DNA of 64,000 bases from Aquiluna sp. (GTDB lineage Bacteria > Actinomycetota > Actinomycetes > Actinomycetales > Microbacteriaceae), in contig JAGYIJ010000003.1 in assembly GCA_018402685.1 (NCBI GenBank), forward strand, positions 49,968 to 113,967, written 5' to 3'. Below, in pieces: positions 2,633-64,000 of the stretch. Numbering within the stretch: position 1 is the stretch's first letter; each line of letters opens with the position of its first letter. A model generated the notes under the pieces. That model was given only the letters and a program-made list of their open reading frames with translations. It ran no database searches and was not told the origin of the DNA. Position numbers and translations under genes: made by a program.

Positions 2633-3256
2633 CTATTGCGCTGAGCGAATCATCATCTCATCCAGCACGTCATCAGGAGCATCGGCGATGAGTCGCACTG
2701 ACTTTCTGAGCAGGAACCAGAAAACATAAATGAAGAGAATGTGGATCAGTGCGTATGCGGACCAGGCGTTATCGCCAACACCCATCAAAAAGCCGGTGCC
2801 AAACAGAATGACGATATTCGAACCCCAGAGCAAGAACTTCTTTGCTCCTCTGGTTCTGAGCCCATCCCACTTGGTGTCATCGAGCTGCTTCTCAACCGAC
2901 TTTGCAGAAGCCGATGCCCAGGCGGCGTCAGAGCCTGCCATTTGACCTCTGAACATGGCCCAGTACTCCTTGCTCAGGTTTCGAGCCTTTAGATAGAGCA
3001 AGAAGATTGGGACCTCGATCACGGTCATGGCGAGGATGGTGAAGAAGAACCAGTTGGTGTCAAAGAACACAAATCTGAAACTTGGGTCATCGTTCCAAAA
3101 CAGCACCGCAGAGATAGCAACTGGGATGCCGGTGACCAGGATGTCCATCCAAGCCATCAGCTTGACGTTATTGCCAATCACCTTTGGGTAGAACCAGAGA
3201 TAGGCAACCGCCAAGGTTGCCAGGATGTAGAAAACAACTAGTAGTTCGTTGCTCAT
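2633..3256 (-). CDS. Hypothetical polytopic membrane protein, co-transcribed with an XRE regulator
   Basis: 207 aa with about 5 TM segments. 4-nt overlap with the upstream HTH gene. Confidence 0.6.
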   Translation of the reverse strand: MSNELLVVFYILATLAVAYLWFYPKVIGNNVKLMAWMDILVTGIPVAISAVLFWNDDPSFRFVFFDTNWFFFTILAMTVIEVPIFLLYLKARNLSKEYWAMFRGQMAGSDAAWASASAKSVEKQLDDTKWDGLRTRGAKKFLLWGSNIVILFGTGFLMGVGDNAWSAYALIHILFIYVFWFLLRKSVRLIADAPDDVLDEMMIRSAQ

Positions 3257-3489
3257 GCTTCTTCCTCATCAAGCCAGAAGATCTCTTCGACACTGGCGCC
3301 TAGAACCGAGGCAATCTTGAGAGCAAGCACCAAAGATGGCGAATACTCTCCGCGCTCGATATAACCGATGGTTTGGTAGTGGACGTCAACCTGGTCGGCT
3401 AGCTCCTGGCGAGTGAGCCCGGCCGCATTGCGAAGTTCTTCGATGCGGTTGGCTACCTGCTCTTGCTCAGCCTTTGGTTTACGACCCAT
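3253..3489 (-). CDS. XRE-family helix-turn-helix transcriptional regulator
   Basis: 78 aa. LTRQELADQVDVHYQTIGYIERGEYSPSL is a classic HTH_3 signature. Confidence 0.85.
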   Translation of the reverse strand: MGRKPKAEQEQVANRIEELRNAAGLTRQELADQVDVHYQTIGYIERGEYSPSLVLALKIASVLGASVEEIFWLDEEEA

Positions 3490-3528
3490 GGATGTAGCAT
3501 AAATGCTATGTAGTAATAATGCAACAAT

Positions 3529-3939
3529 CTATTGCAACCAGTTTTGAACTCGAAGGCCCGGTACTCGATTGAAGTGCTTGTGATTGTTGGTGACGATTGG
3601 AACTTCAAGGCTTAGCGCGTGAGCGGCAATCAGCGTGTCAGCAAACCCAATCGGTGTCTGCCTGAGGTCATCAGAGGCAAGTAGTTGAGCCGCTTCGACC
3701 GATGCGGCATGATCGAACTCAATCACCCAAGCACTGGCAATGAGACTCAGGGTTAGCCCCCTAATACGCTCGGACCTTGCAACCCTCGCATACCTGCCCA
3801 GCTCAACCGCCGTGATAGCAGATATGGCCCAGGTCTCTGAATACTGCAACAACTTTGAATTGAGCTTCGAGTTACCACGGAGCGCAAGGCTAAGAATATC
3901 TGTGTCGACCAGCAGTCTGGGACTAGTCCTCGAGTTCAA
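3529..3939 (-). CDS. vapC: PIN-domain VapC-family toxin
   Basis: 136 aa. LLVDTDILS at the N-terminus and IVTNNHKHFNRV at the C-terminus. Confidence 0.85.
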   Translation of the reverse strand: MNSRTSPRLLVDTDILSLALRGNSKLNSKLLQYSETWAISAITAVELGRYARVARSERIRGLTLSLIASAWVIEFDHAASVEAAQLLASDDLRQTPIGFADTLIAAHALSLEVPIVTNNHKHFNRVPGLRVQNWLQ

Positions 3940-4201
3940 TTAGCGCCTCCCAACCAGGTCTCGGCGAATCGGGAACAGGGTCAAGCGTCGGCCACTCATC
4001 CTCCGGGATTGGTCCTAGTTTCTCGACGAGGGCAAAGAAGTTCTCCATCGGCCTGGGATGCCGCTGGGTAACGACCAGTGCGTTCAGAGTCTCATCGAAC
4101 CGAACAAACACCTCATCGGCATCAAAGCGCCACTGCGCTGGGATGCGAATTGCTTGGGAGCCGCCATTTTTAAAGATCTTGGCTTTGTGGATTTCTTGCA
4201 T
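3923..4201 (-). CDS. vapB: AbrB/SpoVT-type VapB antitoxin
   Basis: KIFKNGGSQAIRIPAQW motif. Start moved to the ATG at 4201 (MQEIHKAK...), which is preceded by a GGGAGG RBS. The track ORF extends to 4249. Confidence 0.8.
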   Translation of the reverse strand: MQEIHKAKIFKNGGSQAIRIPAQWRFDADEVFVRFDETLNALVVTQRHPRPMENFFALVEKLGPIPEDEWPTLDPVPDSPRPGWEALIELED

Positions 4202-4298
4202 CTTTGCCTCCCAGGAAGTTGTAGATGCATAAAGTATAGATGTATTCATACAAGCCAGTTTGGCAAGATTTCCTGAACCAAGAAGTGAGAGTTTTGAA

Positions 4299-9492: not shown

Positions 9493-10092
9493 CTAGAACA
9501 GGTAAAAGAGTTTCTTATCGGAAACCACGCCTGAGACTTCAACCTTGATCTCATACTGGGCTCCGCCTCTTGGGGCAGGTCGATTGTTGTCGGAGCACTG
9601 GAACTCGCTCGAAGAGTAAACCTTGAGCCATTCACCAGGTTCTGACTTCTCGACGATGTTTGGCTTCAGGACCTTGGAGAACCTCGAATCTCCCTCCCTG
9701 TCACAGTCTCTAGATGAGTAGAAGACCTGCTCACCAGAGGTGATCGTGAAGAAGGTGGCGTAGGTGCCAACGTCAAAGATGCAATCCACCAAACCGGTGT
9801 TTGTGATCTCATACCAGACAAAGACCGGCTCACCCTCTGGCAGGTTCACCAAAGGTTCGAGAGTCTCACCCCTGCCGATAAAGGCCTCAACCTCAACCAC
9901 TCCGGGTTGGCAGTTGGTGATCTCCTCGGCGGTCGCTTCGGAGGTCGGGGTGGCGATGGTTTCTGGCTCCTGAGCATCATTCGGAGCTGCAAGTAACTGG
10001 GTGCCAGCAAAGACCAGTGCGGCGATTGCAACTAGGACAACAAGGGCAACAAGGCGACGTTTTTTGTAGACATTCGCATCGACTTGACTCAT
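9493..10092 (-). CDS. Membrane-anchored extracytoplasmic protein with four Cys, hypothetical
   Basis: 199 aa with an N-terminal TM anchor. It sits where the conserved membrane protein follows radA in other actinobacteria. Confidence 0.6.
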   Translation of the reverse strand: MSQVDANVYKKRRLVALVVLVAIAALVFAGTQLLAAPNDAQEPETIATPTSEATAEEITNCQPGVVEVEAFIGRGETLEPLVNLPEGEPVFVWYEITNTGLVDCIFDVGTYATFFTITSGEQVFYSSRDCDREGDSRFSKVLKPNIVEKSEPGEWLKVYSSSEFQCSDNNRPAPRGGAQYEIKVEVSGVVSDKKLFYLF

Positions 10093-18991: not shown

Positions 18992-19543
18992 CTACCTGTT
19001 TATCAAAGCCATCGCCTCTTGGCGATAGCTGGGTTCGGTGAAGACCCCTCTGGATGCGATAGTGACCGTGTTGACCTCGGGTTGCCTTGCTCCCCGAGAT
19101 GCCACGCACTGGTGCCTGGCCTCAATCACCACTAGCACTCCCTTGGGATCTAGGCCCTCAACAAGAGCATCGGCAACCTCTGAGGTCAAGCGCTCCTGCA
19201 ATTGCGGTCTCGATGCGATGATCTCTAGAACCTTTGCCAGTCTTCCCAAACCCGCTAACTGCGTGTTTGGTAGGTAGGCGATGTGAGCATTTCCGGTGAA
19301 GGGCAAGAGGTGATGCTCGCAAATTGAAACCAGTTCGATGTCTTTCAGGATCACCGTCTCGGAGCTATCTGCTGGAAAGGTTTCACCAATCGCACTCAGT
19401 GGGTCCACTCCAATGCCCTTGAAAAAGGAGGCGTAGGCCTCGGCAACCTTCTCGGGGGTGGATTTGAGCTCCTGGCGATTCGGATCCTCGCCGATGGCTA
19501 GAAGAATCTCGGTGACGGCATTGCGAATCCGATCAGCCTGCAT
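18992..19543 (-). CDS. folE: GTP cyclohydrolase I
   Basis: Start trimmed to [10 protein letters not shown] at 19543. CEHHLLPF and HQC motifs. Confidence 0.9.
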
Positions 19544-21538
19544 TTTTCTCACTGCTAGCCTCGGGGGCTTCGCCTTCGATTGCAGCTGGTTCTGGTTGCG
19601 GCTCTGGCTCTGGCAGTGCCTCGAGCTCTTTAACCTTGCGCTCGGGGACCGCGATTGGGCCCTTGGTGCCAACCGCACGCTTTTGGGACGACCTCCAGGT
19701 GCTGCGCTCAGCAACCTTCTTGACGCCCTTGAAGATGACTGCAATCTCGTCCTGGTTCAGGGTTTCTTTTTCTAGTAGCTCCTTGGCCAACTTGTCCAAA
19801 ATTCGGCGGTTAGTGATCAAGGCCTTGTGAGCCTCGTCCAACGCGCCATCCAAGATGGCACGGACTTCGTTGTCGACGACCTGAGCCATCTCGTTTGAGT
19901 AGTTTGAGTGGGTGGCAAGTTCTCTTCCAAGAAATGGCTCTGCGGTTCCCGAACCAAGCGAGATGGTGCCAACCTTGGCGCTCATGCCGTATTTGGTGAC
20001 CATGGTTCTGGCAATGTTGGTGGCCTTCTCAAAGTCGTTCGAGGCTCCGGTGGTTGGGTCTTTGAAGACAATCTCCTCTGCGATGCGACCACCCATGGCA
20101 TAGGCGATCTGGTCTAGGAGCTGATTACGTGTGATCGAGTAGCGATCTTCCATGGGCATCACCATGGTGTAGCCAAGGGCTCGGCCTCTGGGCAGGATGG
20201 TGATCTTGGTGACCGGGTCCGAGTAGTTCAGCGCTCCCGCAACTAGTGCGTGACCGGCCTCGTGATAGGCGGTGATGAGCCTTTCCTTGTCCTTCATGAT
20301 TGCGGACTTCTTTTGCGGTCCGCCAATCACGCGGTCAATGGCCTCATCGATAATCTCATCGGTGATTGCAGGTCTATTGAGTCTTGCTGCCAAAAGTGCG
20401 GACTCGTTCAGCACGTTTGCCAGATCTGCTCCGGTGAAACCGGGGGTCCTTCTAGCAACCAGGGCCAAGTCGATGTCGTCGGCGATTGGTTTGTTCTTGG
20501 CGTGGACCTTGAGAATCTGCTCGCGGCCCTTCAGATCTGGTGCGTTCACGCCAACCTGACGGTCAAAGCGACCCGGGCGCAATAGCGCAGGGTCTAACAC
20601 GTCTGGGCGGTTGGTGGCTGCAATCAAGATCACGTTGGTGCTGGTGTCAAAACCATCCATCTCAACCAAGAGCTGGTTCAGGGTTTGCTCACGCTCATCG
20701 TTACCGCCACCGATTCCGGTGCCGCGGTGACGACCAACCGCATCGATCTCGTCAACAAAGATGATTGCAGGGGCAGCCTGCTTGGCCTGCTCGAAGAGGT
20801 CTCTAACTCTTGAGGCACCAACTCCGACAAACATCTCCACAAAATCAGACCCGGAGATCGAGAAAAAGGCACGCCGGCTTCGCCGGCTACCGCCTTGGCG
20901 ATCAGAGTCTTGCCGGTTCCCGGAGGCCCATAGAGCAGCACTCCCCTTGGGATCTTGGCTCCCATGTCGACAAACTTCTTGGGGCTTTTGAGAAAGTCTT
21001 TAATCTCGGTGAGCTCTTCGAGAGCCTCTTCAATGCCTGCGACATCCTCAAAGGTTGTCGAAGAGGTCTCCTTGGTGACCATCTTTGCCTTGGACTTACC
21101 AAAGCTCATGACCCCTCTGCCGCCACCACCCATCGAACTCAACAGGAACCAGAACAGCGCCAAAATAATAATCAGTGGCAGAAGTGATCCAAGAATCGCC
21201 AACAGCCACGGGGTCGAGGGAACATCGTCTGTCCAGCCTTCGCTAATTGGCGAGCTGGCAACTATCTCGGCAACGGTGTCGGCCCTGCCAGAGACGAAGT
21301 AGAACTGGACGTATTCACCATTGCTGGAGTTGGCATTAATTAGCTGAACATCGACCCGCTGGTCACCGTCAATGACGGTGACGGACTTGGCCTGGCCGGT
21401 GCGAATGAGGTCGAGGCCCTCCTGGGTGTCGACCCGCTGGTACTGGTTTGTTGAAAGCAGTGAGCTACCGATCAGCACAACCGAGAGCGCAAGCGCAATC
21501 CAGAACCATGGACCCTTGAAAAACTTCTTCAACTTCAT
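19533..21538 (-). CDS. ftsH: ATP-dependent zinc metalloprotease FtsH, reading frame broken by a 1-nt frameshift
   Basis: Two overlapping ORFs (20678-21538 and 19533-20840). The N-part carries the TM segments and Walker A (GPPGTGKT). The C-part starts at [15 protein letters not shown] and contains HEAGH. Adding one T to the T5 run (plus-strand A5 at 20863-20867) restores [17 protein letters not shown]. Confidence 0.9.
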
Positions 21539-45426: not shown

Positions 45427-46918
45427 CTAGCGAGGTGCCAGGAGCTCGTATGCTGCCTCTAGCTCAGGAGATAGATCTCTATCCGGCCCCATCCCAGGAA
45501 CTCGTTCCCTAAGAATTGCAATCAACTCGCCGGTCACTGGTGCTGGCTTGTGTTCCCTGAGCTCAACCGCTCTTGCAGCAGTGACCAGCTCGATGGCAAG
45601 GATTCGACGCAGGTTGTCGACGGCTTTGCGCAGCTTGCGTCCTGCATGCCAACCCATGGAGACGTGATCCTCCTGCATCGCACTCGATGGAATCGAGTCG
45701 ACGCTTGCGGGATTTGCCAGCCTCTTGTTCTCACTCACCATCGCCGCTTGGGTGTATTGCGCGATCATCAAACCAGAGTCGACTCCGGCATCGTGAGCGA
45801 GAAAGTGAGGCAGTCCACGGTTTCTAGATACATCCAAGAACCGATCGGTCCTTCGCTCTGAGATTGACCCAACATCGGCAACCGCAATTGCCAAGAAGTC
45901 CAGACACCATTGCAACTGGGGCTCCGTGGAAGTTGCCGTTGGAGGTGACCTCACCACTTTGCAACACAACCGGATTGTCGATGATTGCCGCCAACTCCCT
46001 GGTTGCAACGAGCTTGGCGTGAGTAACGGTATCCCTTGCAGCACCTGCAACCTGCGGCGAGCAGCGAAGCGAGTAAGCATCCTGCACCACGCCATCACCA
46101 TGGCGATGTGAGGAGACAATCTCACTTCCCTTGAGTGCTGCAAACATGTTTGCAGCACTTACTGCCTGGCCTGGATGTGGTCGAAGTGGTTCGTGGAGTT
46201 CAGGTCTGAAGACCTGATCGGTGCCCATCTGCCCCTCGACGCTCATAGCAGCGATGACATCGGCCTGGTCCAACAGCAACTCAAGATCGGAGATCGCCAT
46301 GATCAGCATGCCCAACATGCCATCGGTGCCGTTGATGAGCGCGAGGCCTTCTTTCTCTCGAAGCTCCACAGGCGTAATGCCGGCTGCTGACAGCAACTCT
46401 GCGACTGGCTTCTCAGTGCCGTCAGGCCCAGAGGCCCTGCCCTCACCCATGAGCACCATTGCGCAGTGAGCGAGAGGTGCTAAATCTCCGGAGCAACCCA
46501 GGGAGCCATACTCCAAAACTCTTGGCGTGATGCCGGCATTCAAGATGGCGGCATAGGTCTGAGCAACTATCGGCCTCACGCCGGTCTGACCCGAACACAT
46601 CGTCTTTAGTCGCAAAGCCATGAGCGCTCTGACGACCTCGCGTTCGATCGGATCTCCCATGCCGGCAGCGTGGGAGCGAATCAGTGACTTCTGCAGCTGC
46701 ACGCGATCACCTGCAGGGATGTGCCTTTGAGCTAGAGCACCGAAGCCGGTGGAGATGCCATAAACAGGTGTCTCGGCTTGAGCGAGTTTCTCAATGTGCT
46801 CACGCGTTGAGGCCATGGCGCTAAGAGATTCTGGGGAGATCTCAACCTGGGCGCCCTTTCTTGCAATTGCAATCACATCGGCAAATGTCATGCCCGATGT
46901 TGAGATAACTACCTTCAT
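45427..46918 (-). CDS. hutH: Histidine ammonia-lyase, broken by a 1-nt frameshift
   Basis: The N-part (45824-46918) contains [12 protein letters not shown] (MIO-forming motif region). The C-part (45427-46158) reads ...[18 protein letters not shown].... Junction near 45918-45925. Confidence 0.9.
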
Positions 46919-53369: not shown

Positions 53370-54066
53370 ATGAAGATTGGCGTAATCACATATCCAGGAA
53401 CCCTCGACGACCGCGATGCGCAGCGCGCGGTGCGCCTCGCTGGCGGCACGCCTGTCCCGCTTTGGCATGCAGACTCCGACATCAAAAAGGTCGATGCGGT
53501 TGTTCTCCCCGGTGGCTTTTCCTATGGCGATTACCTTGCGCTGCGGAGCCATCGCAGCTAAGGCTCCCGCCACCCAAGAGGTAATCAGGCTCGCGGCGCA
53601 GGGCCTGCCTGTTCTTGGCATCTGCAATGGCTTCCAGGTCCTGGTTGAATCACACCTCTTGCCAGGTGGACTAATTAGAAACGAACACCAGCACTTTATT
53701 TGCCGCGACCAGAAACTGCGCGTCGAGAACAACGAGACCGCATGGACCTCACTGTTCGAAAAAGACGAAGAGATCACCATCCCACTAAAGAACGGCGAGG
53801 GCGGCTACATCGCAAACCCTGACACTTTGAAGATGCTCGAGGAAGAGAACCGGGTGGTCTTTAGGTATTTGGATGTGAACCCCAATGGTTCGATGAACGA
53901 CATTGCCGGGCTCACCAATGAGCGAGGCAATGTCGTTGGCCTGATGCCTCACCCCGAGCACGCAGTGGAGCCAGGCTTCGGCCCTGACACCCCAATCGCA
54001 ACCAGATCAGGCATCGATGGCCTCAAGTTCTTCCAGTCGGTACTGAAGGTTTTGGTGAACAGCTAA
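53370..54066 (+). CDS. purQ: Phosphoribosylformylglycinamidine synthase glutaminase subunit PurQ, broken by a 1-nt frameshift
   Basis: ORFs 53370-53561 ([16 protein letters not shown]...[10 protein letters not shown]) and 53416-54066 (...[10 protein letters not shown]...GICNGFQ...HPEH). Removing the extra nt at about 53538 gives GDYLRCGAIA. Confidence 0.9.
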
Positions 54067-56362
54067 TGGAATCAAGGCGCCCAACAAACGTTGACACCGT
54101 GACTGATGCCAGCCAAGACCAGAGTAAGTCTCAGCCCTGGAAAGAGCTGGGTCTCAAACAAGACGAATACGAGAGCATCAGAGAGATTCTTGGTAGGAGA
54201 CCAACCTCTTCAGAGCTAGCGATGTATTCGGTGATGTGGTCCGAGCACTGCAGCTACAAATCATCGAAGATCTACCTCCGCCAGTTTGGCGAGAAGGTCA
54301 CCCCCGAGATGAAAAAAGACCTCATGGTCGGCATGGGTGAAAACGCAGGTGTTGTCGACATCGGCGAGGGCATGGCGGTGACCTTCAAGGTCGAAAGCCA
54401 CAACCACCCCAGCTACATCGAGCCCTTCCAGGGAGCAGCCACCGGTGTTGGTGGCATCGTTAGAGACATTTTGACCATGGGTGCAAGACCAATTGCCGTC
54501 ATGGACCAGCTGAGATTTGGAGCGCCATCAGACCCCGACACCGCAAGAGTCGTGCATGGCGTTGTTGACGGCATCTCCTTCTATGGCAACTGCCTCGGAC
54601 TTCCAAACATTGGTGGCGAGACTGTCTTTGACAAGGTCTACCAGGGCAACCCACTTGTGAATGCACTTGGCCGTTGGCGCCATGAAACACGAGGATCTAA
54701 AGCTTGCCAAGGCAACCAATGCCGGCGACCTAGTGATTCTCTTTGGTGCCAGGACCGGTGCCGACGGCATCGGTGGCGTGAGCGTGCTTGCCTCAGAAAC
54801 CTTTGCCGATGGCGGTCCAACCAAGCGCCCAGCTGTTCAGGTTGGTGACCCATTTGCCGAGAAGGTGCTAATTGAGTGCTGCCTAGAGCTCTTTGAAGCA
54901 GGCGTGGTTGCAGGTATTCAGGACCTTGGTGGTGCCGGTATCTCCTGCGCCACAAGTGAGCTTGCCTCTAACGGCGGTATGGGCATGAGGGTGCAGTTGC
55001 AAGATGTGCTACTTCAGAGACGACTCGCTAACCCCAGAAGAGATTCTGATGAGCGAGTCTCAAGAGCGCATGATGGCAATCGTTCCCAAAAAGCACCTCA
55101 AAGACTTTGAGAAGATCGTAAACAAGTGGGAGGTCGAGTACTCGGTACTTGGCGAGGTCATCGACGAGGACCGGTTGTATATCAACTGGGGCGATCAAGA
55201 GATCGTCAACGTACCCCCAAGAACCGTTGCCCACGATGGCCCGGTCTACACTCGCCCAGTTGAATACCCCAAATACCAAGACGCCCTAAACGCCGACAGC
55301 TCAGACCGACTTGAACGAGCAAAAGACGCAACCGAGCTGGCGACCCAGCTGTTGCAGATTCTTAGCTCTCCTAACCAGGCAGACAAGAGCTGGATCACCG
55401 CGCAGTATGACAAGTACGTCATGGGCAACACCGCGCTTTCGATGCCAGATGATGCCGGCATGGTCAGGGTGAATGAAGACTCTGGTCTGGGCATCACCAT
55501 TGCAACCGATGCCAACGGCAAGTACTGCCAGCTAAACCCCTATGAGGGCACCAAGCAGGCACTTGCCGAGGCCTATAGAAACGTTGCAGTAACTGGTGCA
55601 ACACCAAAGGCCGTCACCAACTGCCTCAACTTTGGTTCTCCTGAGAACCCAGAGGTGATGTGGCAGTTCAAGGAAGCCACCGCAGGCTTAGCCGATGGCT
55701 GCATGGAGCTGGGAATCCCGGTTACCGGCGGAAACGTCAGCTTCTACAACCAAACCGGTGATGTTGCCATCTACCCAACTCCGGTAGTTGGTGTCTTAGG
55801 TGTGATTGACGATGTTGCAAGACGCATCCCATCTGGTTGGCAAGACGATGGCAACAACATCTACCTGCTCGGCACCACCATGGATGAACTAGATGGCTCT
55901 GCCTGGGCAGAGACCATCCACTCTCACCTCGGTGGTCAGCCTCCAAGGGTTGATCTCCAAAAAGAGAAGCAGCTTGCAGAGCTACTGCAGGGTGCTGCAG
56001 TGCAAGGCTTGATTGAATCTGCCCACGATGTCTCAGAGGGCGGTCTCGCGGTTGCAGTTGCAGAGAGCGCACTGAGATTCAACGTTGGAGCCAGAATCTG
56101 GATCGAAGAGCTCAAAGACCGCGACCAGCTTGATGACACCGCAGCCCTGTTCTCTGAATCTCAAGGAAGAGTCATCGTGACCGTAGGCCGGGAAGACGAC
56201 GTGAAGTTCCAGGGTCTTTGTGAAGCAAGGGGCGTTCCAGTACTCCGCATCGGCGTCACCGATAAAGAGTCAGAGGCGTTGAACATTCAGGGCATTGCAG
56301 AGATTCCACTGAATGACGTTAGGTCTGGTTGGGCTAAGACTTTGACTGAGTTGTTTGGGTAA
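54066..56362 (+). CDS. purL: Phosphoribosylformylglycinamidine synthase subunit PurL, broken by two 1-nt frameshifts
   Basis: ORFs 54066-54848, 54661-55110 and 55004-56362. Junction 1 is an extra G at 54669/54670 (expected [16 protein letters not shown]). Junction 2 is near 55014 (expected ...[24 protein letters not shown]). Confidence 0.9.
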
Positions 56363-56390: not shown

Positions 56391-56410
56391 TTGAGGGGAT
56401 AGCACCTCAA
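56391..56410. promoter_or_regulatory. Palindromic box A, TTGAGGGGATAGCACCTCAA
   Basis: One of four copies of TTGAGGGG-N4-C(A/C)CCTCAA. 71 nt upstream of the paralog 1 ATG. Confidence 0.6.
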
Positions 56411-56481
56411 CCCAGGACCCTACAGGCCACTATTTAGCTCTCTTGCACCACACTTTATTGAAGCTTTAGGGAGTGTGAGTA

Positions 56482-57212
56482 ATGCGTTTAAGGCCCTTTA
56501 TGGGTGGGATGGTCCTAAGTGCCAGCCTTCCCATGATGGGCATCACCACTTCTCCCCCAGCTCCCAGCCACGCAGATGTCAGTATCTCTGTTAGCGCAGC
56601 TGAAAGCTGCGTTTGGTACATGGAGAATCTGCCATCGGTGATCAACATGCAGTCAGAGACTAAGTACAAGGGTGAGCCCTTGTTGGTCTCTGCAACGATT
56701 AGCCCGGCCCTTGGGTTTTCCGGTGACCCGGAAGTTCCCGGCTACTCCACGGCATGCAGCTTCTTCAACTCATCCTTCACGACCAAAAAGATGCAGGTAG
56801 CGATCGACAGTTCCCAGTTCGAGGCAACTTATGGTGGGACTACGGACGAAAGCCTTAGCTTTGGGTTGGACGAGAGACCCCTGTCAGTTGAAGTATCAAA
56901 CGTTGACCAAGAGTGCCAGAACGTTACTGGGATGCCACTAACGGTTCCAGCTAATTTTGGCTGGGGAAGAAACAAATCTGCTACCTCAACCGCTTTAGAT
57001 GTTGTTGCCTATTCGGATGTTCCGGATTGAAGAACTTCTTCCCCTCGGGCAATTCTGCAAAATGCTCACCAGAGCTGGAGTTTGAGGTTGAGATAAGCAG
57101 CGCACAATCAGGCCCCCCGGATGGAGCTGGTCAGACATACGTATTCACCGGTCCTAGCATTACCTTCAGCATGGAGAATGTTGCAAACACTTATGGCACC
57201 GTTGCAGAGTAG
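56482..57212 (+). CDS. Secreted four-Cys WxL-like surface protein, paralog 1 (broken by a 1-nt frameshift near 57026-57029)
   Basis: Sec signal peptide (..SHA/DV). ORFs 56482-57030 and 57027-57212 together align along the full length of paralog 2 (CVWYMENLP, CSFFNSS, KCSPELEFEVEI, GQTYVFTGPSITF). Confidence 0.7.
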
Positions 57213-57233
57213 TCACTCAGTGCCTTTAGAACT

Positions 57234-57614
57234 TTGGCCCCGGATCCCACAGCAGAATTGACATCGAGAACGCACTCCAACACCGAAGAAACCTTTAAAT
57301 TTTCTGTCGACTCAGCTGAGCGCATTTACGACGGATCCCTCTATGGAACAGCCGCGGAGTTCAGGTTCGTGCCCCAGAATAACCCGACCTGGTACTTTAC
57401 CCGGACGGCTTGGACAAACAACCCAAGAAAGAGCTTTGGATTTAACATAGAACGGACCTTTAGCAGAGATGGAAAGCCCTTTACGACTTGGGTTTCGGTC
57501 GACTATCGAATTGATTACCGCTACCCAGGAACGGATTGGGTCATCGGTGCAGCTAACCAAACACGGGAAAGTGACCCAAAAAGTGTCTATCGGGTAATGA
57601 ATGCTGAACCTTAG
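57234..57614 (+). CDS. Hypothetical protein, no signal peptide, TTG start only
   Basis: 126 aa, W/Y/F/R-rich, beta-strand-like composition. In the same frame as the paralog 1 C-part, separated by one TAG (57210-57212). No ATG or RBS seen. Confidence 0.3.
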   Translation: MAPDPTAELTSRTHSNTEETFKFSVDSAERIYDGSLYGTAAEFRFVPQNNPTWYFTRTAWTNNPRKSFGFNIERTFSRDGKPFTTWVSVDYRIDYRYPGTDWVIGAANQTRESDPKSVYRVMNAEP

Positions 57615-57691
57615 CAATTCCGCGCACGAGCGCAGCGCAAACCGCTTATTCGCAGGGTCTTGCAGCGCGCGTGCAGAGAAACAGATAATGC

Positions 57692-57711
57692 CTGAGGGGA
57701 TAGCACCTCAA
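57692..57711. promoter_or_regulatory. Palindromic box B, CTGAGGGGATAGCACCTCAA
   Basis: 19/20 identical to box A. 70 nt upstream of the paralog 2 ATG. Confidence 0.6.
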
Positions 57712-57781
57712 AAAAGCTGACCTCTGATGACCAAGCCCCGATCCAGAGCGATAATTAAGCCATCTCAAGAGAGTGTGAGCT

Positions 57782-58495
57782 ATGCATTTAAGACCTTTGG
57801 CAGGTGTGGTGGCGATAGTTGCCAGCTTTCAAATGCTGGGCCTTGCGATTTCTACCCCTCCCAGTCACGCCAATGTCAGCATCTCGGTGAGTGCTGCTGA
57901 GAGCTGCATTTGGTACCTTGAAAATGTCCCCACGGGAATAAACCTCGAATCTGAAACCAAGTACAAAGGCCAACCAATCAGTATTTCCGGAACTATCAGT
58001 GCAGCAATTGGTTTCTCCGGAAATGCTGACGTGCCGGACTACGCCACTCAATGCAGCTTCTTCAACTCATCCCTGACCACAAAGAAACTCACCGTTTCGC
58101 TTGTTGGAAGTGAGTTCAGAGCAACCTACAACGGCACAATAGACGACAGCATGGGCTTTGGTGTGGATGAGCGTCCACTCGTTCTTGAAACCTCGAGTGG
58201 CGCTGCAAACTGCCCTCAGGTTGAGGGCCTTCCCGCTACAGTTCAAGCAAGCTGGAAATGGGGACCGATTTCGAACATAGATGACCTCGAACGCTCATTT
58301 GATCTGGTTACGTATTCGAGTACCCCAAATGTTGGTGAAAAGAATCACTTTCTTTCCGGGGAGGCTGCGAAGTGCGCACCAGAAGTAGAGCTCTCGGTCG
58401 AGATTCGAAGCACACAACAAGGCCCTCCAGAAGGTGCCGGTCTTACATACCTCTTTGAAGGTCCGAGTCTGACCTTCGCCCTAAACGACAACTAA
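57782..58495 (+). CDS. Secreted four-Cys WxL-like surface protein, paralog 2
   Basis: 237 aa. Signal peptide (..SHA/NV). N-terminal CIWYLENVP (W-x-L...P) and C-terminal TYLFEGPSLTF (Y-x-F..GP) motifs. Four conserved Cys. Confidence 0.8.
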   Translation: MHLRPLAGVVAIVASFQMLGLAISTPPSHANVSISVSAAESCIWYLENVPTGINLESETKYKGQPISISGTISAAIGFSGNADVPDYATQCSFFNSSLTTKKLTVSLVGSEFRATYNGTIDDSMGFGVDERPLVLETSSGAANCPQVEGLPATVQASWKWGPISNIDDLERSFDLVTYSSTPNVGEKNHFLSGEAAKCAPEVELSVEIRSTQQGPPEGAGLTYLFEGPSLTFALNDN

Positions 58496-58560
58496 GTTGC
58501 CTTCCCTACATGCGCCCCAATCGCTCTGTTCCTGAGATCCAAAACAGGCCCGCGTAAACC

Positions 58561-58580
58561 GTGAGGGGTTAGCACCTCAA
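58561..58580. promoter_or_regulatory. Palindromic box C, GTGAGGGGTTAGCACCTCAA
   Basis: 18/20 identical to box A. 86 nt upstream of the paralog 3 ATG. Confidence 0.6.
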
Positions 58581-58624
58581 ATCTCAGAAATCCCCTAGGT
58601 GAAGCGGATACGGGCTGTTTGTAT

Positions 58625-58650
58625 CGTGTTAACACGAACCGTGTTAACAC
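58625..58650. promoter_or_regulatory. Two tandem palindromes (C)GTGTTAACAC(G), 15 bp apart
   Basis: GTGTTAACAC at 58626-58635 and 58641-58650, 16-40 nt upstream of the paralog 3 ATG. Absent upstream of paralogs 1 and 2. Confidence 0.45.
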
Positions 58651-58666
58651 CAACTAAGGAGACCTA

Positions 58667-59395
58667 ATGGAAAAGAAGAATTTGGCAGGTGCGCTAATCG
58701 CGTCTCTGTCCCTACCGCTTATGTTGGCAACGTTTAGCGTGCCACTAGCGAATGCCGCGGGGGTTTCATCCTCAGTAGCAACCGTCGACAACTGCAAATG
58801 GGTTATGGCGAACATCCCGGGTTCTTTCGCTATGACTTCCTCTGGGGACGCAAAGTACGACGGTGACGCGCTCACTGTCTCCGCTTCCCTATTAGGGCCA
58901 ACCCTGGGTCTCAGTGGTTCCACCTCAACCGTCGCAACTTCTGCGGAAAGCAGCACTGAGTGCAGCTTCTACAACAGAGTTCTCAATGCCTCACTGTCTG
59001 CAACGCTGGACACCGTGTCTTTCGTAGCAAGCTACGAGAAGGCTGACGGCACCACTGAATCCGACATCGCCATGAACTTCTCTCTTGAAGCTGGCTTACC
59101 ACTGGTGATCACCCCAGACATTTCAGCTTGTACTGTTCCGTCGGGTTGGACATCATCAACAATCAGCTTCACTGCTTCCTCATCTGAGCAGTTGATTGCA
59201 TTCACTAGCAGTACGGACGGCTATGATGCAGGCGATGCACCCCGCTGTGATCCTCCAGGAACCATTGAAGTGCAGATCCCGCAGCGCACCTCAGTGCCTG
59301 AAGGAGCGGGTAGCGACTACTCGTTCACTGGTCCAACCATCACATTCTCGAGCACTCCTAGCAACAACTACGACTACGTTGCCGGAACCGAGTAA
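58667..59395 (+). CDS. Secreted four-Cys WxL-like surface protein, paralog 3 (divergent)
   Basis: 242 aa. Signal peptide (..ANA/AG). CKWVMANIP, CSFYN, RCDPPGTIEVQI, DYSFTGPTITF. Same Cys pattern as paralogs 1 and 2. Confidence 0.8.
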   Translation: MEKKNLAGALIASLSLPLMLATFSVPLANAAGVSSSVATVDNCKWVMANIPGSFAMTSSGDAKYDGDALTVSASLLGPTLGLSGSTSTVATSAESSTECSFYNRVLNASLSATLDTVSFVASYEKADGTTESDIAMNFSLEAGLPLVITPDISACTVPSGWTSSTISFTASSSEQLIAFTSSTDGYDAGDAPRCDPPGTIEVQIPQRTSVPEGAGSDYSFTGPTITFSSTPSNNYDYVAGTE

Positions 59396-59416
59396 CTAAA
59401 CAGCGAATCAGAAACC

Positions 59417-59455
59417 CCTACCCCAGGGCAGCCCAATCAGCTGCCCTGGGGTAGG
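59417..59455 (+). promoter_or_regulatory. Perfect 16-bp stem / 7-nt loop hairpin between paralog 3 and the anchor gene
   Basis: CCTACCCCAGGGCAGC-CCAATCA-GCTGCCCTGGGGTAGG. No T-tract follows. The last stem base is the G of the GTG start at 59455. Confidence 0.55.
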
Positions 59456-61008
59456 TGTTAGTAAGGAAAATCATCAGGCGCCTACTGGCCGCAGCACTAG
59501 CGATTGTCGCAATGACCTTCGCGATTACACCTGTTGCGTCAGCGAGCGGCCTAGGTATTTTCATTTCATTTGGTCAATCCGGGGAGACGGACGCCGAAGC
59601 CAGTGGACGTATCTGGGGTGGTGGTGAGGCTGGCACCAGCTTTACCCGCACGATGGTGATCGAGAGCCTTAGCTCCGACACCGATCAAGCAATCACTTTT
59701 GAGATCAATGACCAGGTCACTGAAAACGAAACATCGTTCATAGATTTCAGCACCCCGAGCCGAATCACAGATTGGGTACTCTTTGAACCTGCTGCGCCAG
59801 TATTGAGGCCCGGTGAAAGAGTTGAGGTCACAATAACCTTCAACATCCCTCCCGGCACCAACGACGGCGCCTTCAACGCAAACATAAGGACCTTCAGCTC
59901 GGCGGCAGCCGAGGCTGACATGGCAGATTCAGATGCCGGAACCCAGGTTGTAATCGGGACGCGTCTTGCGATTGACGCCAAGGTCTGGCTGGGTGTTGGA
60001 GACGCCCTCGCATTGGCCCCGGTCTTTGACATCATCGGTGTAGACGGAGCGTTGATTGACGAGGATAAGTTCGTCAGAGTCTTCTTTGAAAACACCGGGA
60101 TATCACCAGTGCAGCCCTCAGGTCGAATGCAGCTGAGTGATCCGAACTTTGTCGACAGGGTCTTTGAGCCAGTTGACTTCTCAGTGCCTGAACTGCAGGG
60201 TGGCGAGATCCAATTTGTCGACATCCCGGTCCCGGCAGATCTAGAGGATGGTTTCTTCAGGGTATTCGTCACGGCCCAATCCGGCGAGGTCAGAATCACC
60301 AGACTGTTTGAAGCCAGCCTGGTCTTTGATGATCCAAACAAGCTTGCGATATCAGACTTAGCTATTCGCATAGCCGGCTTTGTAATTGCAGCCCTGGGGC
60401 TCGTGTTTGGCGTGAGGCTGATTCGAGGCAGTGGCCAAAAGGTAGCCAAAGAACCTAAAGAGCCTCGAGGTTCAAAACCAGCGAGAGCAAAGGCAATCAA
60501 ACTGCCTAGGAAGCTGCTCAAACTTAGAAGTGAGCCTGAGGCAACGAAGGCGGAAGATCCGATTGAGGCCATCCAGGCGGCAATAGCCAGGATGGAAAAG
60601 CAGTTCCAGGAACTCAACCAGGAGATTGCCACCACCAAGCCAACTCCTAGACGCAAGCCCACACCAAGACCAAAGGCTGCCCCAAAGCCAAAGACCTCTG
60701 CAGCACCTTCGGCCAAAAAGCCTGCATCGGCTCAGCCTGCCAAAAAGGCCCCGTCTAAAGAGGCGGTCTCAAGGGCTGCGGTTCAAAAGACCACTGCCGC
60801 CAGGCCAGCCTCAAGGCCCGCAGCCGCCAAGGCTGCCCCAGCTAGGCAAAAGCCCGCCCCGAGAAAGACATCGCCAGCGCCGGAGTCCAAGAAGGTTGCT
60901 CCTGCCCAAAAGCCGCCCGTGAAAAAGACTCCGGCTAAGCAAGCTGTTGCAAAGGCAGCGGTTCAAAAGACCACCGCCGGCAAAGCCGGCAGTGAGAAAG
61001 AAAACTAA
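59455..61008 (+). CDS. DUF916/DUF3324-like (WxL-cluster CscA-like) membrane-anchored surface protein with a 196-aa Lys/Pro/Ala-rich C-terminal tail
   Basis: 517 aa. Signal peptide (VASA/SG), about 270-aa ectodomain (..RITDWVLFEPAAPVLRPGERVEVTITFNIPPGTNDGAFNANI), one TM around aa 301-321, then a K/P/A-rich tail with an internal repeat AV(S/A)(R/K)AAVQKTTA. Family assigned from memory. Confidence 0.7.
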   Translation: MLVRKIIRRLLAAALAIVAMTFAITPVASASGLGIFISFGQSGETDAEASGRIWGGGEAGTSFTRTMVIESLSSDTDQAITFEINDQVTENETSFIDFSTPSRITDWVLFEPAAPVLRPGERVEVTITFNIPPGTNDGAFNANIRTFSSAAAEADMADSDAGTQVVIGTRLAIDAKVWLGVGDALALAPVFDIIGVDGALIDEDKFVRVFFENTGISPVQPSGRMQLSDPNFVDRVFEPVDFSVPELQGGEIQFVDIPVPADLEDGFFRVFVTAQSGEVRITRLFEASLVFDDPNKLAISDLAIRIAGFVIAALGLVFGVRLIRGSGQKVAKEPKEPRGSKPARAKAIKLPRKLLKLRSEPEATKAEDPIEAIQAAIARMEKQFQELNQEIATTKPTPRRKPTPRPKAAPKPKTSAAPSAKKPASAQPAKKAPSKEAVSRAAVQKTTAARPASRPAAAKAAPARQKPAPRKTSPAPESKKVAPAQKPPVKKTPAKQAVAKAAVQKTTAGKAGSEKEN

Positions 61009-62652
61009 CTAGGAGAGCTTCACCCGCAACAGTGAGCCTGAGCCGGTATTACTGAGCTCCCAATCATTTGATACCGAGTCAAAGTATGTCGAACCTAACC
61101 CCGGGACTCCGTCTCTTGGACCGGTGCCGTCATCTGCGACGGTGATCTCGGGGCCCTCCCCAATTGTCACTGAGATCCTCGATGCGAAGCCGTGGCGAAC
61201 GCCATTGGCGATTCCCTCGTTGATAACTTCCCTGACTTCCTCGAGCTGCTTTTGGCTAAGGGGTGTTGGGCTAATGGCAAAGGTGATCTGGGCCATGCCT
61301 CCCCAGTCTTTCTCCAGCCGCATGATCACCTCTTCGAGGCTGGTGACCTGCTGCCTGCCAAACTCTGCCAAGGACTCGTTTAGAACTCTTTCTATTTGGT
61401 CAATTTCCTCGCTGAGATCTGTATTATCCATTCGTGATTCGATGCGAGCGGCAACACCATTGAGCTTGGATTGCATGTGACCGTGCAGGAACTGAGCCAA
61501 TTGGCGATCCCGGAGTGCCAACTCTCGAATCCTTCTGAGCTCCTCAAGATCTGATTCATCTAAGAACTTCTCGAACTCTGTTTCCACCTTCTGCCCAAGC
61601 TCCAAAAACGCCTTTGCCATGCCGATACACATGGTGAGCTGGAAAAGCCATACGAGATTGGCAATCATGAAGCCAACATCATCACCAAGACTGCGGCCAT
61701 CGGAGAGGAAGGTTCCAAGCGCCACCTGAGAAAAGGCGATCAGAACCATCGAAGTGAGATAGACGCCCAGGGCACCCGCGGTGGTTTTGACTGGTATTGC
61801 TTTTGCCAATAACAGCCCTGCGATCAACAGCACTGACCTGACTAGCTGAATAAGCAAACCATCTTCGATACCAAACACTCTGACATTTGCAGTTAGAGAG
61901 GTGAGGGCCCAAAGTGGCACAACCCAGCCCACCGAATAGACGTGTCCTCGAATCGCAATCTTGGCCATTTGGGTGAGCTTGAAGCTGGGAAACTTCAAAG
62001 ACTCCCTGCGCCATATCTCCTGGCTCAGTGGACGTAGATCCGAATTCACAATGTCACGCAGCTCACCAACCAGCCCCTGCGAATCTAGCGATTTACCCGA
62101 CTGGGCAATCCTTTGCTTGGCATCTGTAACGAACCTCACCAAAGTTGCCGGGTAGCTCTCGCCACCAACACTGGCAACCTTCTCGCTAATCAGCGCCTCG
62201 CGCTGCTGAGCGCAGCGATAGCGCAGTGAACCGACCAGTGCAACCGCCGGCACCACAATCAAACCGCCAATAGCCGAAAACCCCAGACGCGCTATGAATT
62301 CGGGCAGGCTGTCGAAGGCATACCCAAAAAACACCAGTCCCACCCAGGTGAGAAAACCTTTGAGCACCCCGGCAGCAGCACCCCCAACCACTAGCGCTCC
62401 AAGGCTTATGCTCACCTCACGCTCTTGGGTCTTGAGGTATCGATCAAGAGCCACGAGAATGACGAAGATTGCGGCAACCGCTCCAATGTTGGCAAAGACA
62501 AGACCCAGCGTCCTACCGGTGTCTTCAAAACTGGTGGCTGTCAGGAAAGAGATTAGGACAATCGAAACGCCCAACAGGGCGAAGATCGAGTAGTCAAAAG
62601 CTCCAGAGGCAGCAAATCTTTGCCCGAAGAAGTCGCTAAGCCTCTTGAGCAT
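61009..62652 (-). CDS. Polytopic sensor histidine kinase (HisKA_3/NarX-DesK type)
   Basis: 547 aa. About 9-10 TM with no recognisable sensor domain. H-box RQLAQFLHGHMQSKL, N-box EGIANGVRHG, G-boxes DDGTGP and GLGS. Confidence 0.8.
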   Translation of the reverse strand: MLKRLSDFFGQRFAASGAFDYSIFALLGVSIVLISFLTATSFEDTGRTLGLVFANIGAVAAIFVILVALDRYLKTQEREVSISLGALVVGGAAAGVLKGFLTWVGLVFFGYAFDSLPEFIARLGFSAIGGLIVVPAVALVGSLRYRCAQQREALISEKVASVGGESYPATLVRFVTDAKQRIAQSGKSLDSQGLVGELRDIVNSDLRPLSQEIWRRESLKFPSFKLTQMAKIAIRGHVYSVGWVVPLWALTSLTANVRVFGIEDGLLIQLVRSVLLIAGLLLAKAIPVKTTAGALGVYLTSMVLIAFSQVALGTFLSDGRSLGDDVGFMIANLVWLFQLTMCIGMAKAFLELGQKVETEFEKFLDESDLEELRRIRELALRDRQLAQFLHGHMQSKLNGVAARIESRMDNTDLSEEIDQIERVLNESLAEFGRQQVTSLEEVIMRLEKDWGGMAQITFAISPTPLSQKQLEEVREVINEGIANGVRHGFASRISVTIGEGPEITVADDGTGPRDGVPGLGSTYFDSVSNDWELSNTGSGSLLRVKLS

Positions 62653-63283
62653 CTTGCATAACCCCCGTGGAGCGGAAGTAAACCCTGGCGATGTGAACCC
62701 TTTGGTTCACTGAGTTGCTATTGACAATCCCCAATGACTTAGCAACTCTCGAGATGGTTAGCTCGACCGACTTTTCCTTCACAAATCTTCTCTTTGCAAT
62801 CTCCGAGTTGGAAAGCCCTTCGGCGACCAACCGCAAAGTCTCTATTTGAACATCACTCAGCTTGCCAAAAGCTGAATTGTTCTCAGCCTCGCTGTTACCC
62901 ATGGCGGCGATAGCAGCATCGTTTACAGCACCTTTCAGCATCGTTAGGTTCTGCACGGATTTCTTAGTCAAATACACCGTGCCCTTCGGCACGGCAGGCA
63001 ACGAAGGGCCCAGGAGTCTTGGATCCTCAAAAGAGGTCAACACCACTATCCCTATCTTTGGATTCACCCTGCGGAGCTCCTTGGAAACATCTAAACCAGT
63101 GGCTCCCTTGCCCAAATGGAGATCTAGCATCGCGACCTGGGGCTTCACAGCTATTGCTCGCTCTAAAGCTTTACCGGGCTCGGCCTCCTCGGCGACAACG
63201 TCAAAACCAAAGTGCCTGAGGGCTCCGACAATGCTCAGTCTGGTGAAGGGGTCATCCTCCAAAACCAGCACTCTTAGCGACAT
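62636..63283 (-). CDS. NarL/FixJ (LuxR)-family response regulator
   Basis: 215 aa. REC (VLVLEDDP, AMLDLHL, VLTS) plus a LuxR HTH (LSDVQIETLRLVAEGLSNSEIAKRR). 17-nt overlap with the kinase gene. Confidence 0.9.
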   Translation of the reverse strand: MSLRVLVLEDDPFTRLSIVGALRHFGFDVVAEEAEPGKALERAIAVKPQVAMLDLHLGKGATGLDVSKELRRVNPKIGIVVLTSFEDPRLLGPSLPAVPKGTVYLTKKSVQNLTMLKGAVNDAAIAAMGNSEAENNSAFGKLSDVQIETLRLVAEGLSNSEIAKRRFVKEKSVELTISRVAKSLGIVNSNSVNQRVHIARVYFRSTGVMQDAQEA

Positions 63284-63446
63284 GTCTCAAGTCTCTCCCG
63301 TTGGGAGATAAAAAGACAGCTGATTGGATTTTCTGGGCAATCTCTTGAGGGGTTAGCCCCTCAAGCTCTGCCATAGGCCGCCAAGAATTAAAGCTGACAA
63401 AATCAAGTTCACCAGAATCGATGAGGTCTTGAATTGTTTGTTCCAT
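63252..63446 (-). CDS. Hypothetical 64-aa ORF (doubtful)
   Basis: Overlaps the regulator start by 32 nt and contains palindromic box D. No family recognised. Confidence 0.25.
   Translation of the reverse strand: MEQTIQDLIDSGELDFVSFNSWRPMAELEGLTPQEIAQKIQSAVFLSPNGRDLRHVAKSAGFGG
63345..63364. promoter_or_regulatory. Palindromic box D, TTGAGGGGTTAGCCCCTCAA (perfect 8-bp arms)
   Basis: 61 nt upstream of the response-regulator ATG at 63283. 18/20 identical to box C. Confidence 0.6.
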
Positions 63447-63449
63447 GGA

Positions 63450-64000
63450 CTACTCCCGGAGGTTGACCAAAGGTCTCGATTGGACGGTTCGAATAAACCC
63501 TGATTCTGCCTCCTTCCAATCTTTTGCGCTTAAGTTATTCACAGCCACCTCTTTGCCAATGATTTCGGTTGCTCTGAGCGACAAATCAAACGCCCCAGAC
63601 CGGTCAAAGTCCCCGACCAAAAGAACGTCAATGTCTCCAGGATCGACTCCTGGCACACCCTGATAACGCTCAGCCCAAGACCCATAGATAAAGGCTTCTT
63701 GAACACCGGCAAGCTCAGAAAACAAATCCCTTAGGACCTCAGCTGGGCCAAAGCTGTAGAGGACAATCTCGGAAAGAGCCGCAAACAACTGGTGATCCTG
63801 ATTGGCTCTCACGAGCTGCATGTTTCCAGCTGGACGAACAGTTACGAACTGAACCTGCTCGAGCCTGCGAATCTCGCGCAAAGCTGTAGGCAAAGATGTC
63901 CCAACCCGATTAGCCAAATCCGATACGGAGTACTCGAGATCTTTGTTGACCAGCAGAATCGCCAATATCCTTCCTTGCACATCACTGCGGAGGATTGGCA
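63450..64000 (-). CDS. Winged-helix (ArsR-like) plus MNT-type nucleotidyltransferase fusion protein (5' end probably beyond the window)
   Basis: wHTH (YSVSDLANRVGTSLPTALREIRRLEQ) and an NTase motif (IYGSWAERY...GDIDVLLVGD). The frame stays open upstream of the GTG at 63980 to the window edge (..PILRSDVQGRILAILL). Confidence 0.65.
   Translation of the reverse strand, partial: PILRSDVQGRILAILLVNKDLEYSVSDLANRVGTSLPTALREIRRLEQVQFVTVRPAGNMQLVRANQDHQLFAALSEIVLYSFGPAEVLRDLFSELAGVQEAFIYGSWAERYQGVPGVDPGDIDVLLVGDFDRSGAFDLSLRATEIIGKEVAVNNLSAKDWKEAESGFIRTVQSRPLVNLRE

Follow-up and report, generated by a model that had tools for sequence, protein, structure and literature searches.

Introduction

WxL/Csc clusters of the Bacillota comprise small WxL proteins, a large WxL protein and a WxLIP (DUF916/DUF3324), often accompanied by an LPXTG protein, as in Enterococcus faecium locus A, L. 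plantarum csc and E. faecalis elr. The Firmicute WxLIP binds WxL proteins by beta-strand insertion. Work on these WxL/WxLIP clusters has been confined almost entirely to Bacillota from gut and food, and what they do is debated. Here we describe a six-gene locus comparable to them in a freshwater-type actinobacterium with a small genome, Aquiluna sp. (Microbacteriaceae), located in a 64,000-nt stretch of contig JAGYIJ010000003.1 (assembly GCA_018402685.1, positions 49,968 to 113,967). This whole stretch is referred to as the window, and coordinates are those of the window unless a contig is named. The locus encodes three tandem Sec-secreted paralogs, a membrane-anchored protein (the anchor), a sensor histidine kinase and a response regulator. 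We consider it slightly better than an even bet that it is a surface module under two-component control, with a WxLIP-like anchor holding on to secreted, disulfide-bonded partners that are not WxL proteins.

An earlier note on this DNA had read the locus as a new, actinobacterial version of a WxL cluster. Its occurrence in Actinobacteria is not unprecedented, because weak DUF916 and WxL matches in Actinomadura, Actinoplanes and Streptomyces have already been tabulated (PMC10599100, Table S5). The novelty lies in a partner family that is not WxL, in a kinase/regulator pair dedicated to the locus and in the conserved operator.

Organization of the locus

The open reading frame (ORF) map places paralogs 1-3 and the anchor on the + strand and the kinase and regulator on the - strand. 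The features of the locus are as follows.

56392-56409, +, operator box 1, TGAGGGGATAGCACCTCA, about 82 nt 5' of the paralog 1 start; exact match
56482-57030, +, paralog 1, 182-aa ORF
56482-57212, +, N-terminal family domain of paralog 1, disrupted, ending at an in-frame TAG (57210-57212)
57234-57614, +, remnant of the paralog 1 C-terminal extension, 126-aa ORF
57693-57710, +, operator box 2, about 81 nt 5' of the paralog 2 start
57782-58495, +, paralog 2, 237 aa; signal peptide, acidic mature beta-sandwich (modelled), four conserved Cys
58562-58579, +, operator box 3, about 97 nt 5' of the paralog 3 start
58667-59395, +, paralog 3, 242 aa; core type
59413-59459, +, RNA hairpin in the gap between paralog 3 and the anchor, predicted dG -38.6 kcal/mol, z -6.7
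59455-61008, +, anchor, 517 aa; signal peptide, two beta-sandwich domains, transmembrane helix, basic tail
61009-62652, -, sensor histidine kinase, 547 aa
62636-63283, -, NarL/LuxR-type response regulator, 215 aa; 17-nt overlap with the kinase start
63346-63363, no strand assigned, operator box 4, TGAGGGGTTAGCCCCTCA, near-perfect palindrome, about 71 nt 5' of the regulator start

The TAA stop of the anchor gene directly adjoins the stop codon of the kinase gene, so that the two genes converge without a spacer, and an LPXTG signal was found in none of the real ORFs of the locus. Both points agree with the earlier note.

The anchor protein

The anchor has the architecture of a WxLIP, namely a signal peptide, two tandem immunoglobulin (Ig)-like domains and a C-terminal transmembrane (TM) helix. 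Its AlphaFold2 (AF2) model (pLDDT 79.5) shows beta-sandwiches at residues ~35-181 and 191-289 followed by a helix at ~294-325, and hydropathy analysis agrees. The top Foldseek matches of this model in the PDB are the E. faecium WxLIP 9i1y_A (E 1.9e-12) and 9i25_C (~2e-12), the latter being a WxLIP bound to a long WxL. Generic tandem-Ig proteins (transglutaminase, RbmA, PapD-type chaperones) come next, with E-values of 1e-8 or weaker, four logs behind the WxLIP. In profile-profile alignment with hhalign, the anchor was collinear with five canonical WxLIPs from signal peptide to TM helix (88%, E 2.8e-6); the ectodomains alone, with two very divergent anchors added, aligned over 199 columns covering both domains (78%, E 1.9e-5). 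WxLIP_PGBD and WxLIP_HBD gave no match at E<=10 for the window anchor or four relatives, and the 50 anchor homologues, all metagenomic, are likewise without Pfam domains. The suggestion that the ectodomain resembles DUF916/DUF3324 therefore stands at the level of fold and profile-profile alignment and falls at that of Pfam matches. As judged from its model and profiles, the anchor is a remote WxLIP relative lying outside the Pfam models.

The cytoplasmic tail (192 aa) is Ala/Lys/Pro-rich and basic (pI 11), with internal repeats. The DNA encoding it contains, at 60735-61001, direct repeats of 68 nt (spaced 180 nt) and of ~20 nt (spaced 60-73 nt), which correspond to PAKK/AVQKTTA units that recur in the protein. 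Homologues differ in the length and the repeats of their tails, the one on related contig L001 having KKTSKAN repeats.

The secreted paralogs

Each paralog has a Sec-type signal peptide with an AXA-like site at its end, and the mature proteins are acidic (pI 4.1-4.3) and carry no anchoring motif of their own. Paralogs 2 and 3 share 28% identity (BLASTP E 1e-20). A word-indexed search recovered 18 clusters of relatives, all metagenomic and without Pfam domains, and an exhaustive profile search of 1.84 billion representatives gave 95 relatives at E<=1e-3, nearly all of 230-265 aa. Another word-indexed search, run with a 78-sequence profile, brought in neither more distant relatives nor any Pfam label. 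When profiles of the paralog and anchor alignments were searched against PDB sequences, all matches were at chance level.

All four Cys, together with the C-x-W Trp, are invariant among 78-88 family members, and conservation of the C-terminal motif Y-x-[FW]-x-G-P-x-[LVI]-T exceeds 90%. The family signatures are V-S-S-[ST]-V-x-T-x-[ED]-x-C-x-W-x-[LMVI]-x-G-V-P at the N-terminus and I-P-A-...-P-x-G-P-G-x-T-Y-[TS]-[FW]-[TS]-G-P-[TS]-[LVI]-T-x-x-L at the C-terminus. The two motifs and the four Cys first noted in the three window proteins are confirmed; the description of three tandem paralogs of ~240 aa needs amending in that paralog 1 is not intact. On the strength of these alignments, the paralogs are a new, small protein family. 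The AF2 model of paralog 2 is a beta-sandwich (pLDDT 84, pTM 0.76), and its best Foldseek matches in the PDB, CfaB at 3e-4 followed by CanA, TasA, CS20, CooA and FimG, are weak (TM-scores 0.3-0.45).

One metagenomic representative, P0147 (1450 aa), contains 12 stretches matching the C-terminal segment of the paralog profile (positions 191-231), together with a sub-threshold Internalin-K D3 match and a weak carbohydrate-binding module (CBM) match, to CBM35. With P0147 in view, the C-terminal paralog motif may be a repeatable beta-hairpin unit.

Comparison of the paralogs with WxL domains

Canonical WxL clusters from plasmids of Terribacillus, Enterococcus mundtii, E. gilvus, Bacillus tropicus and B. 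thuringiensis were used for comparison, and their proteins served as positive controls (WxL 5.6e-63, WxLIP_HBD 3e-52, WxLIP_PGBD 6e-43). With controls of this strength, the HMM check proposed for the window proteins (PF13731, PF06030 and PF11797) went against a WxL assignment, with no WxL, WxLIP_PGBD or WxLIP_HBD match at E<=1 (up to 10 for the anchors). The three window paralogs did not match Pfam WxL (PF13731) at E<=1, nor did any of the 88 alignment members scanned (86 besides the window proteins) at E<=0.01; because none of the 86 scanned relatives (of 95) matches, there is no transitive bridge to WxL either.

Aligned by hhalign to nine small WxL proteins, the paralog family reached a probability of 5% (P 0.0078; reversed controls P 0.34). 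The confident stretch was the C-terminal motif alone, in register with the second WxL motif, where IP..P..G..Y.F.GP.LTF.L of the paralogs faces VP..T..A..Y.STLTW.L of the WxL proteins. Whether the alignment was run in local, low-mact or global mode, each with reversed controls, the one signal was at the C-terminus, and it was not significant. Reciprocal hmmsearch between paralogs and small WxL proteins gave at most 8.9 bits, and shuffled sequences gave 5.1. Among the 50 best Foldseek PDB matches of the paralog model, the solved long-WxL chain 9i25_A was absent, and the PDB holds no small-WxL structures.

A WxL domain is recognized by a mid-domain D-x-R-G-T-x-A-G-W-x-L and a C-terminal Y-x-x-x-L-T-W-x-L-x-x-x-P, a pair that the paralogs lack. 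The hallmark first motif, which lies mid-domain in WxL proteins (PMC9772566), is absent, and the C-x-W-x-L of the family lies right at the N-terminal end of the mature protein. Of the proposed parallel between the two paralog motifs and the two WxL motifs, the C-terminal half may hold and the N-terminal half does not. The similarity is marginal and homology of the paralogs to WxL is unproven. By the definition of Hassan et al. (2023), a WxL cluster has at least one WxLIP and at least two WxL within four genes; here two intact paralogs and one disrupted paralog stand beside the anchor, and none is a Pfam WxL protein.

Conservation of the gene block

Among 185,579 species genomes, the sole match was Microbacteriaceae bacterium MiE-23b (1.29-Mb chromosome), an isolate for which we found no literature. 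Its genes are ordered as paralog (296 aa), paralog (235 aa), anchor, and convergent kinase and regulator. As in the window, the paralog(s) and anchor are followed by a convergent kinase gene in nine related contigs (L001-L005, L015-L017 and L019), of which L002-L005, L015-L017 and L019 are metagenomic. Five of the nine (L001-L005) reach far enough to show the regulator gene after that of the kinase. L019 carries an intact paralog 1, paralog 2, paralog 3 and anchor in the same order as the window. The related contigs sampled span a GC content of 41-61%, and paralog-anchor adjacency is kept even in the very distant contigs L012 and L013 (61% GC) and L014 (41% GC). An anchor homologue comes next even after the most distant paralog relatives, P0137 and P0149 (hhalign 99.7% and 99.2%), and in all related loci a paralog-3-type gene lies directly 5' of the anchor gene. 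On contig L012, a related LuxR-type regulator is also encoded next to another member of the paralog family. The expected co-occurrence of paralogs, anchor, kinase and regulator was therefore seen in every related contig long enough to hold them. Gene order, operator box and hairpin (the latter two described below) are conserved in about five lineages, including MiE-23b.

Operator box and hairpin

The sequence TGAGGGGWTAGCMCCTCA occurs four times in the 64 kb (at 56392, 57693, 58562 and 63346), whereas none is expected from 100 shuffles. The copies lie 5' of each paralog gene and 5' of the regulator gene and nowhere else in the window, their centres being 81-97 nt from the three paralog starts and 71 nt from the regulator start; the first and last copies coincide with the ends of the locus as originally described. 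The box before the regulator reads TTGAGGGG-TTAG-CCCCTCAA, a near-perfect palindrome, and is a putative autoregulatory site. The core GGGG-NTAN-CCCC recurs ~90 nt 5' of paralog genes, and also 5' of regulators, in L001-L005, L012 and L015-L019, with flanks that are lineage-specific. With four exact copies and conservation across lineages, the predicted site bears out the earlier view that the locus has a defined operator. Just 3' of box 2 is a sigma-70-like -35/-10 match (57727-57755); the box centre lies ~60 nt 5' of the transcription start deduced from it, a placement typical of an activator.

An imperfect operator-like site at 3745 falls inside a PIN-toxin gene and is probably a chance match. 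The surrounding region (3253-4249, -) contains a PIN-domain (VapC-like) ORF at 3529-3939, an SpoVT/AbrB-like ORF at 3923-4249 and a helix-turn-helix ORF at 3253-3489, and looks like a toxin-antitoxin module.

The hairpin at 59413-59459 has a 20-bp stem whose 3' arm covers the ribosome-binding site and GTG start of the anchor gene. Equivalent hairpins are found at the same position in four other lineages, making five with the window (predicted dG -32 to -39 kcal/mol; stem core CCCAGGG/CCCUGGG), as listed here by contig.

L019, ~3120-3155
L004, ~1650-1686
L015, ~1003-1040
L001, ~9847-9884

Such a hairpin would attenuate or occlude expression of the anchor relative to the paralogs.

In one lineage (L003 4630-5538, L004 5580-6488, L005 4866-5774) a further family member of 302 aa is encoded divergently from the regulator. 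The intergenic region between them contains the regulator-proximal palindrome and a second, degenerate box ~95 nt 5' of the 302-aa gene, so the regulon can extend beyond anchor-linked genes. In the window, the - strand just past the regulator box encodes a 176-aa protein (63450-63980) whose N-terminal region is of winged-helix (MarR/ArsR-like) type and which weakly matches a Pol-beta-type nucleotidyltransferase; it may be a regulator of MNT/HEPN or antitoxin-like type.

Kinase and regulator

The regulator contains Response_reg (5.5e-10) and GerE (1.2e-6) domains with the canonical Asp residues. The ATPase domain of the kinase is closest to those of DevS/DosT, which are HisKA_3-type kinases (profile match 4.8e-5). 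The H-box reads RDRQLAQFLHGH; like the N, G1 and G2 boxes, it is of HisKA_3 type and invariant in four orthologues. A receiver (REC) and GerE regulator paired with a kinase bearing an H-box and HATPase domain make this a HisKA_3/NarL-type system. Pfam HisKA_3 was not called for the kinase, however, and no Pfam or NCBIfam model reaches its cut-off, so that the earlier assignment holds for the LuxR-type regulator and for the kinase boxes, and not for the Pfam family itself.

Hydropathy divides the kinase into two blocks with ~8-10 hydrophobic segments in all, separated by a hydrophilic segment of ~95 residues (residues ~145-240). This segment matches no known domain and includes a D-L-R-P-x-S...W motif invariant in four orthologues; it may be the real sensing or partner-binding element. 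Domain scans matched no known sensor module to the N-terminal half (~340 residues, many TM segments), in agreement with what had been reported of this kinase.

Disruption of paralog 1

Three-frame translation showed that the frame of paralog 1 shifts after '...VVAYSDVPD', and DNA alignment to two related contigs identified a 7-nt deletion (TACGGAG) at ~57027. Where the window has its in-frame TAG (57210-57212), CAG stands in the intact orthologue on L019. The intact orthologues P0013-P0016 (371-380 aa) consist of two domains, and the second of these matches the window ORF at 57234-57614. The TAG is common to the window and contig L020, which comes from an independent metagenome assembly and is 97.4% identical to the window; L020 keeps the 7 nt and carries a 1-nt insertion of its own. 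Because the TAG recurs in this independent contig, loss of the C-terminal domain is probably real, and an explanation of the disruption as a sequencing artefact throughout was rejected in part. The 7-nt deletion could be an assembly error, since it is private to the window, where ftsH, purL and hutH are also split.

Of these genes, purL (54066-56362) is broken up into three ORFs that cover positions 1-167, 167-284 and 281-722 of the profile, ftsH (19533-21538, -) into two (positions 7-223 and 232-598), and hutH (45427-46918, -) is truncated or split. The splitting of essential genes in the window suggests assembly indel errors, and genome decay is less likely.

Proposed mechanism and alternatives

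In the mechanism that we propose, the anchor, with its pair of Ig-like ectodomains, single TM helix and basic tail, would hold the acidic Sec-secreted paralogs at the cell surface in a manner resembling the Firmicute WxLIP. The paralogs would be beta-sandwiches stabilised by disulfides between their four invariant Cys. The paralog-3 type would be the obligatory anchor partner, and paralogs 1 and 2 lineage-specific extra copies, of which paralog 1 would normally carry an extra C-terminal domain. The multi-TM kinase would sense an envelope or membrane signal and phosphorylate the NarL-type regulator, a dimer of which would bind the GGGG-NTAN-CCCC box ~70-97 nt 5' of each paralog gene and of its own operon, co-regulating the paralog genes, probably by activation, and autoregulating. 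The hairpin would lower anchor expression relative to the paralogs. The results above establish which genes are present, that the block and the box are conserved, and that the anchor resembles WxLIP in fold and profile; we infer the binding of the regulator to the box, the sign of regulation and the signal sensed.

Several points weigh against this mechanism. The paralogs show no significant similarity to WxL domains, and Pfam and NCBIfam scans of the locus proteins matched no model to any surface protein. The TM-scores between anchor and WxLIP are low (0.40/0.50, RMSD ~10 A), as would be expected if the inter-domain angle differs. The WxLIP strand motif that inserts into WxL, NQIDKxxxYFDLK (PMC10599100), is not conserved in the anchor, whose aligned segment, E-x-x-x-Q-T-D-A-E-x-x-G-S-I-W, corresponds loosely and in the Q, the D and an aromatic residue alone. 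Because tandem Ig folds are common, the likeness to WxLIP is possibly one of convergence. Paralog 1 is broken in the window, so not all copies are needed. Physical binding between paralogs and anchor is likewise something we infer.

The paralogs might instead be true, highly diverged WxL domains and the cluster a bona fide WxL/Csc member, as would suit their WxLIP-like partner, their size, acidity and lack of an anchor, which they share with small WxL proteins (PMC9772566), and the register of the C-terminal motif with the second WxL motif (P 0.008 compared with 0.34 when reversed). We regard this as unlikely in view of the Pfam WxL result (0 of 88 at E<=0.01), the hhalign probability of 5%, the hmmsearch scores of 8.9 against 5.1 bits, the missing first WxL motif with C-x-W-x-L at the mature N-terminus and not mid-domain, the position of 9i25_A outside the top 50 model matches, and four invariant Cys that have no WxL counterpart. 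A similarly low probability attaches to sortase-independent fibre or pilus subunits joined by donor-strand exchange, with the anchor as a PapD/WxLIP-like membrane-bound chaperone or base. The best Foldseek matches of the paralog model are indeed donor-strand-complemented fibre subunits (CfaB, CanA, TasA, CS20, CooA and FimG), the anchor model matches the chaperones PapD, EcpB and FimC at ~3-6e-7, and the hairpin after the core paralog gene resembles attenuators 3' of major-pilin genes. There is also a conserved alternating segment, V-S-S-[ST]-V-x-T, just behind the signal peptide; it precedes E43-47, the first strand to be modelled, and falls where confidence in the model is lowest (block-mean pLDDT 58-84). 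Yet the paralog matches are weak (E 1e-4 to 1e-2, with the TM-scores given above), the small beta-sandwich fold is generic, and no usher, sortase or dedicated signal peptidase is present.

Still less probable, in our view, are freely secreted paralogs that bind nutrients or polymers or act as kinase ligands, sharing regulation with the anchor without binding it. They would explain the missing anchoring motif, the weak cohesin and CBM Foldseek matches, and a kinase that has no recognisable extracytoplasmic sensor domain; but the paralog-3-type gene is strictly adjacent to the anchor gene in all lineages across 41-61% GC, which argues for a physical partnership, and the closest solved match of the anchor binds a small secreted partner (PMC10599100). 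We also entertain, as a rather remote extension, that the anchor is a co-sensor for the kinase: paralog occupancy would be relayed through the TM helix and basic tail, the regulator would tune the paralogs through the four boxes, and the paralogs may form donor-strand-linked fibres. If true, this would be a self-measuring, sortase-independent circuit for surface assembly in streamlined planktonic Actinobacteria.

Significance

Under the favoured reading of an anchor retaining non-WxL partners, the locus suggests greater age and wider distribution for the WxLIP-type anchor, as a scaffold able to pair with an entirely different family of small secreted proteins. Since neither the paralogs nor the anchor has a Pfam model, both are candidates for new family definitions. 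The dedicated sensor and regulator, with a short palindromic operator at every target gene, offer a defined regulon with testable DNA-protein and protein-protein interactions. That a streamlined relative of ~1.3 Mb keeps the block and its two-component system suggests that the module matters for life in the water column, with possible roles in surface remodelling, attachment, or phage or grazer interactions. Interest is limited by the undefined function and the mostly uncultured hosts.

Comparison with known systems

Chaperone-usher and class 5 pili (CfaB/CooA/Fim, PapD) and TasA-type fibres share with the locus the weak paralog-model matches and a two-Ig anchor like PapD-type chaperones. They differ in that the locus has no usher and a monoderm host, and the likeness is weak, generic and without a sequence relationship.

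With DevS/DevR, LiaS/LiaR and NarQ/NarP, the two-component system shares a REC and GerE regulator, HisKA_3-type boxes, a DevS/DosT-like ATPase, a palindromic target of 18-20 bp and an autoregulatory site, putative here. Unlike NarL/LuxR-family HisKA_3 systems, its kinase falls below curated Pfam and NCBIfam cut-offs and has an N-terminal half without a sensor-module match.

In layout the locus looks like a distant relation of the WxL/Csc clusters of Bacillota. Both have tandem small, acidic, Sec-secreted, beta-rich proteins without an anchor, encoded directly 5' of a two-Ig TM protein, and the order on the Bacillus tropicus plasmid, three small WxL genes and then WxLIP, is comparable. A solved WxLIP is the best structural match of the anchor, the profiles are collinear, and the paralog C-terminal motif is in register with the second WxL motif. 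In contrast, the window proteins lack Pfam WxL, WxLIP_PGBD and WxLIP_HBD matches, and the locus has no large WxL with N-terminal adhesin domains, no LPXTG protein and no sortase. The paralogs have four invariant Cys and no DxRGTxAGWxL, and the anchor ends in a basic Ala/Lys/Pro tail of ~190 aa, whereas the WxLIP has a short Lys-rich stub. The block also possesses a dedicated histidine kinase/response regulator pair and a conserved operator, which Firmicute clusters usually lack. Finally, WxL/Csc clusters belong to gut or food Bacillota, whereas the hosts of this block are small-genome, largely uncultured Actinomycetota.

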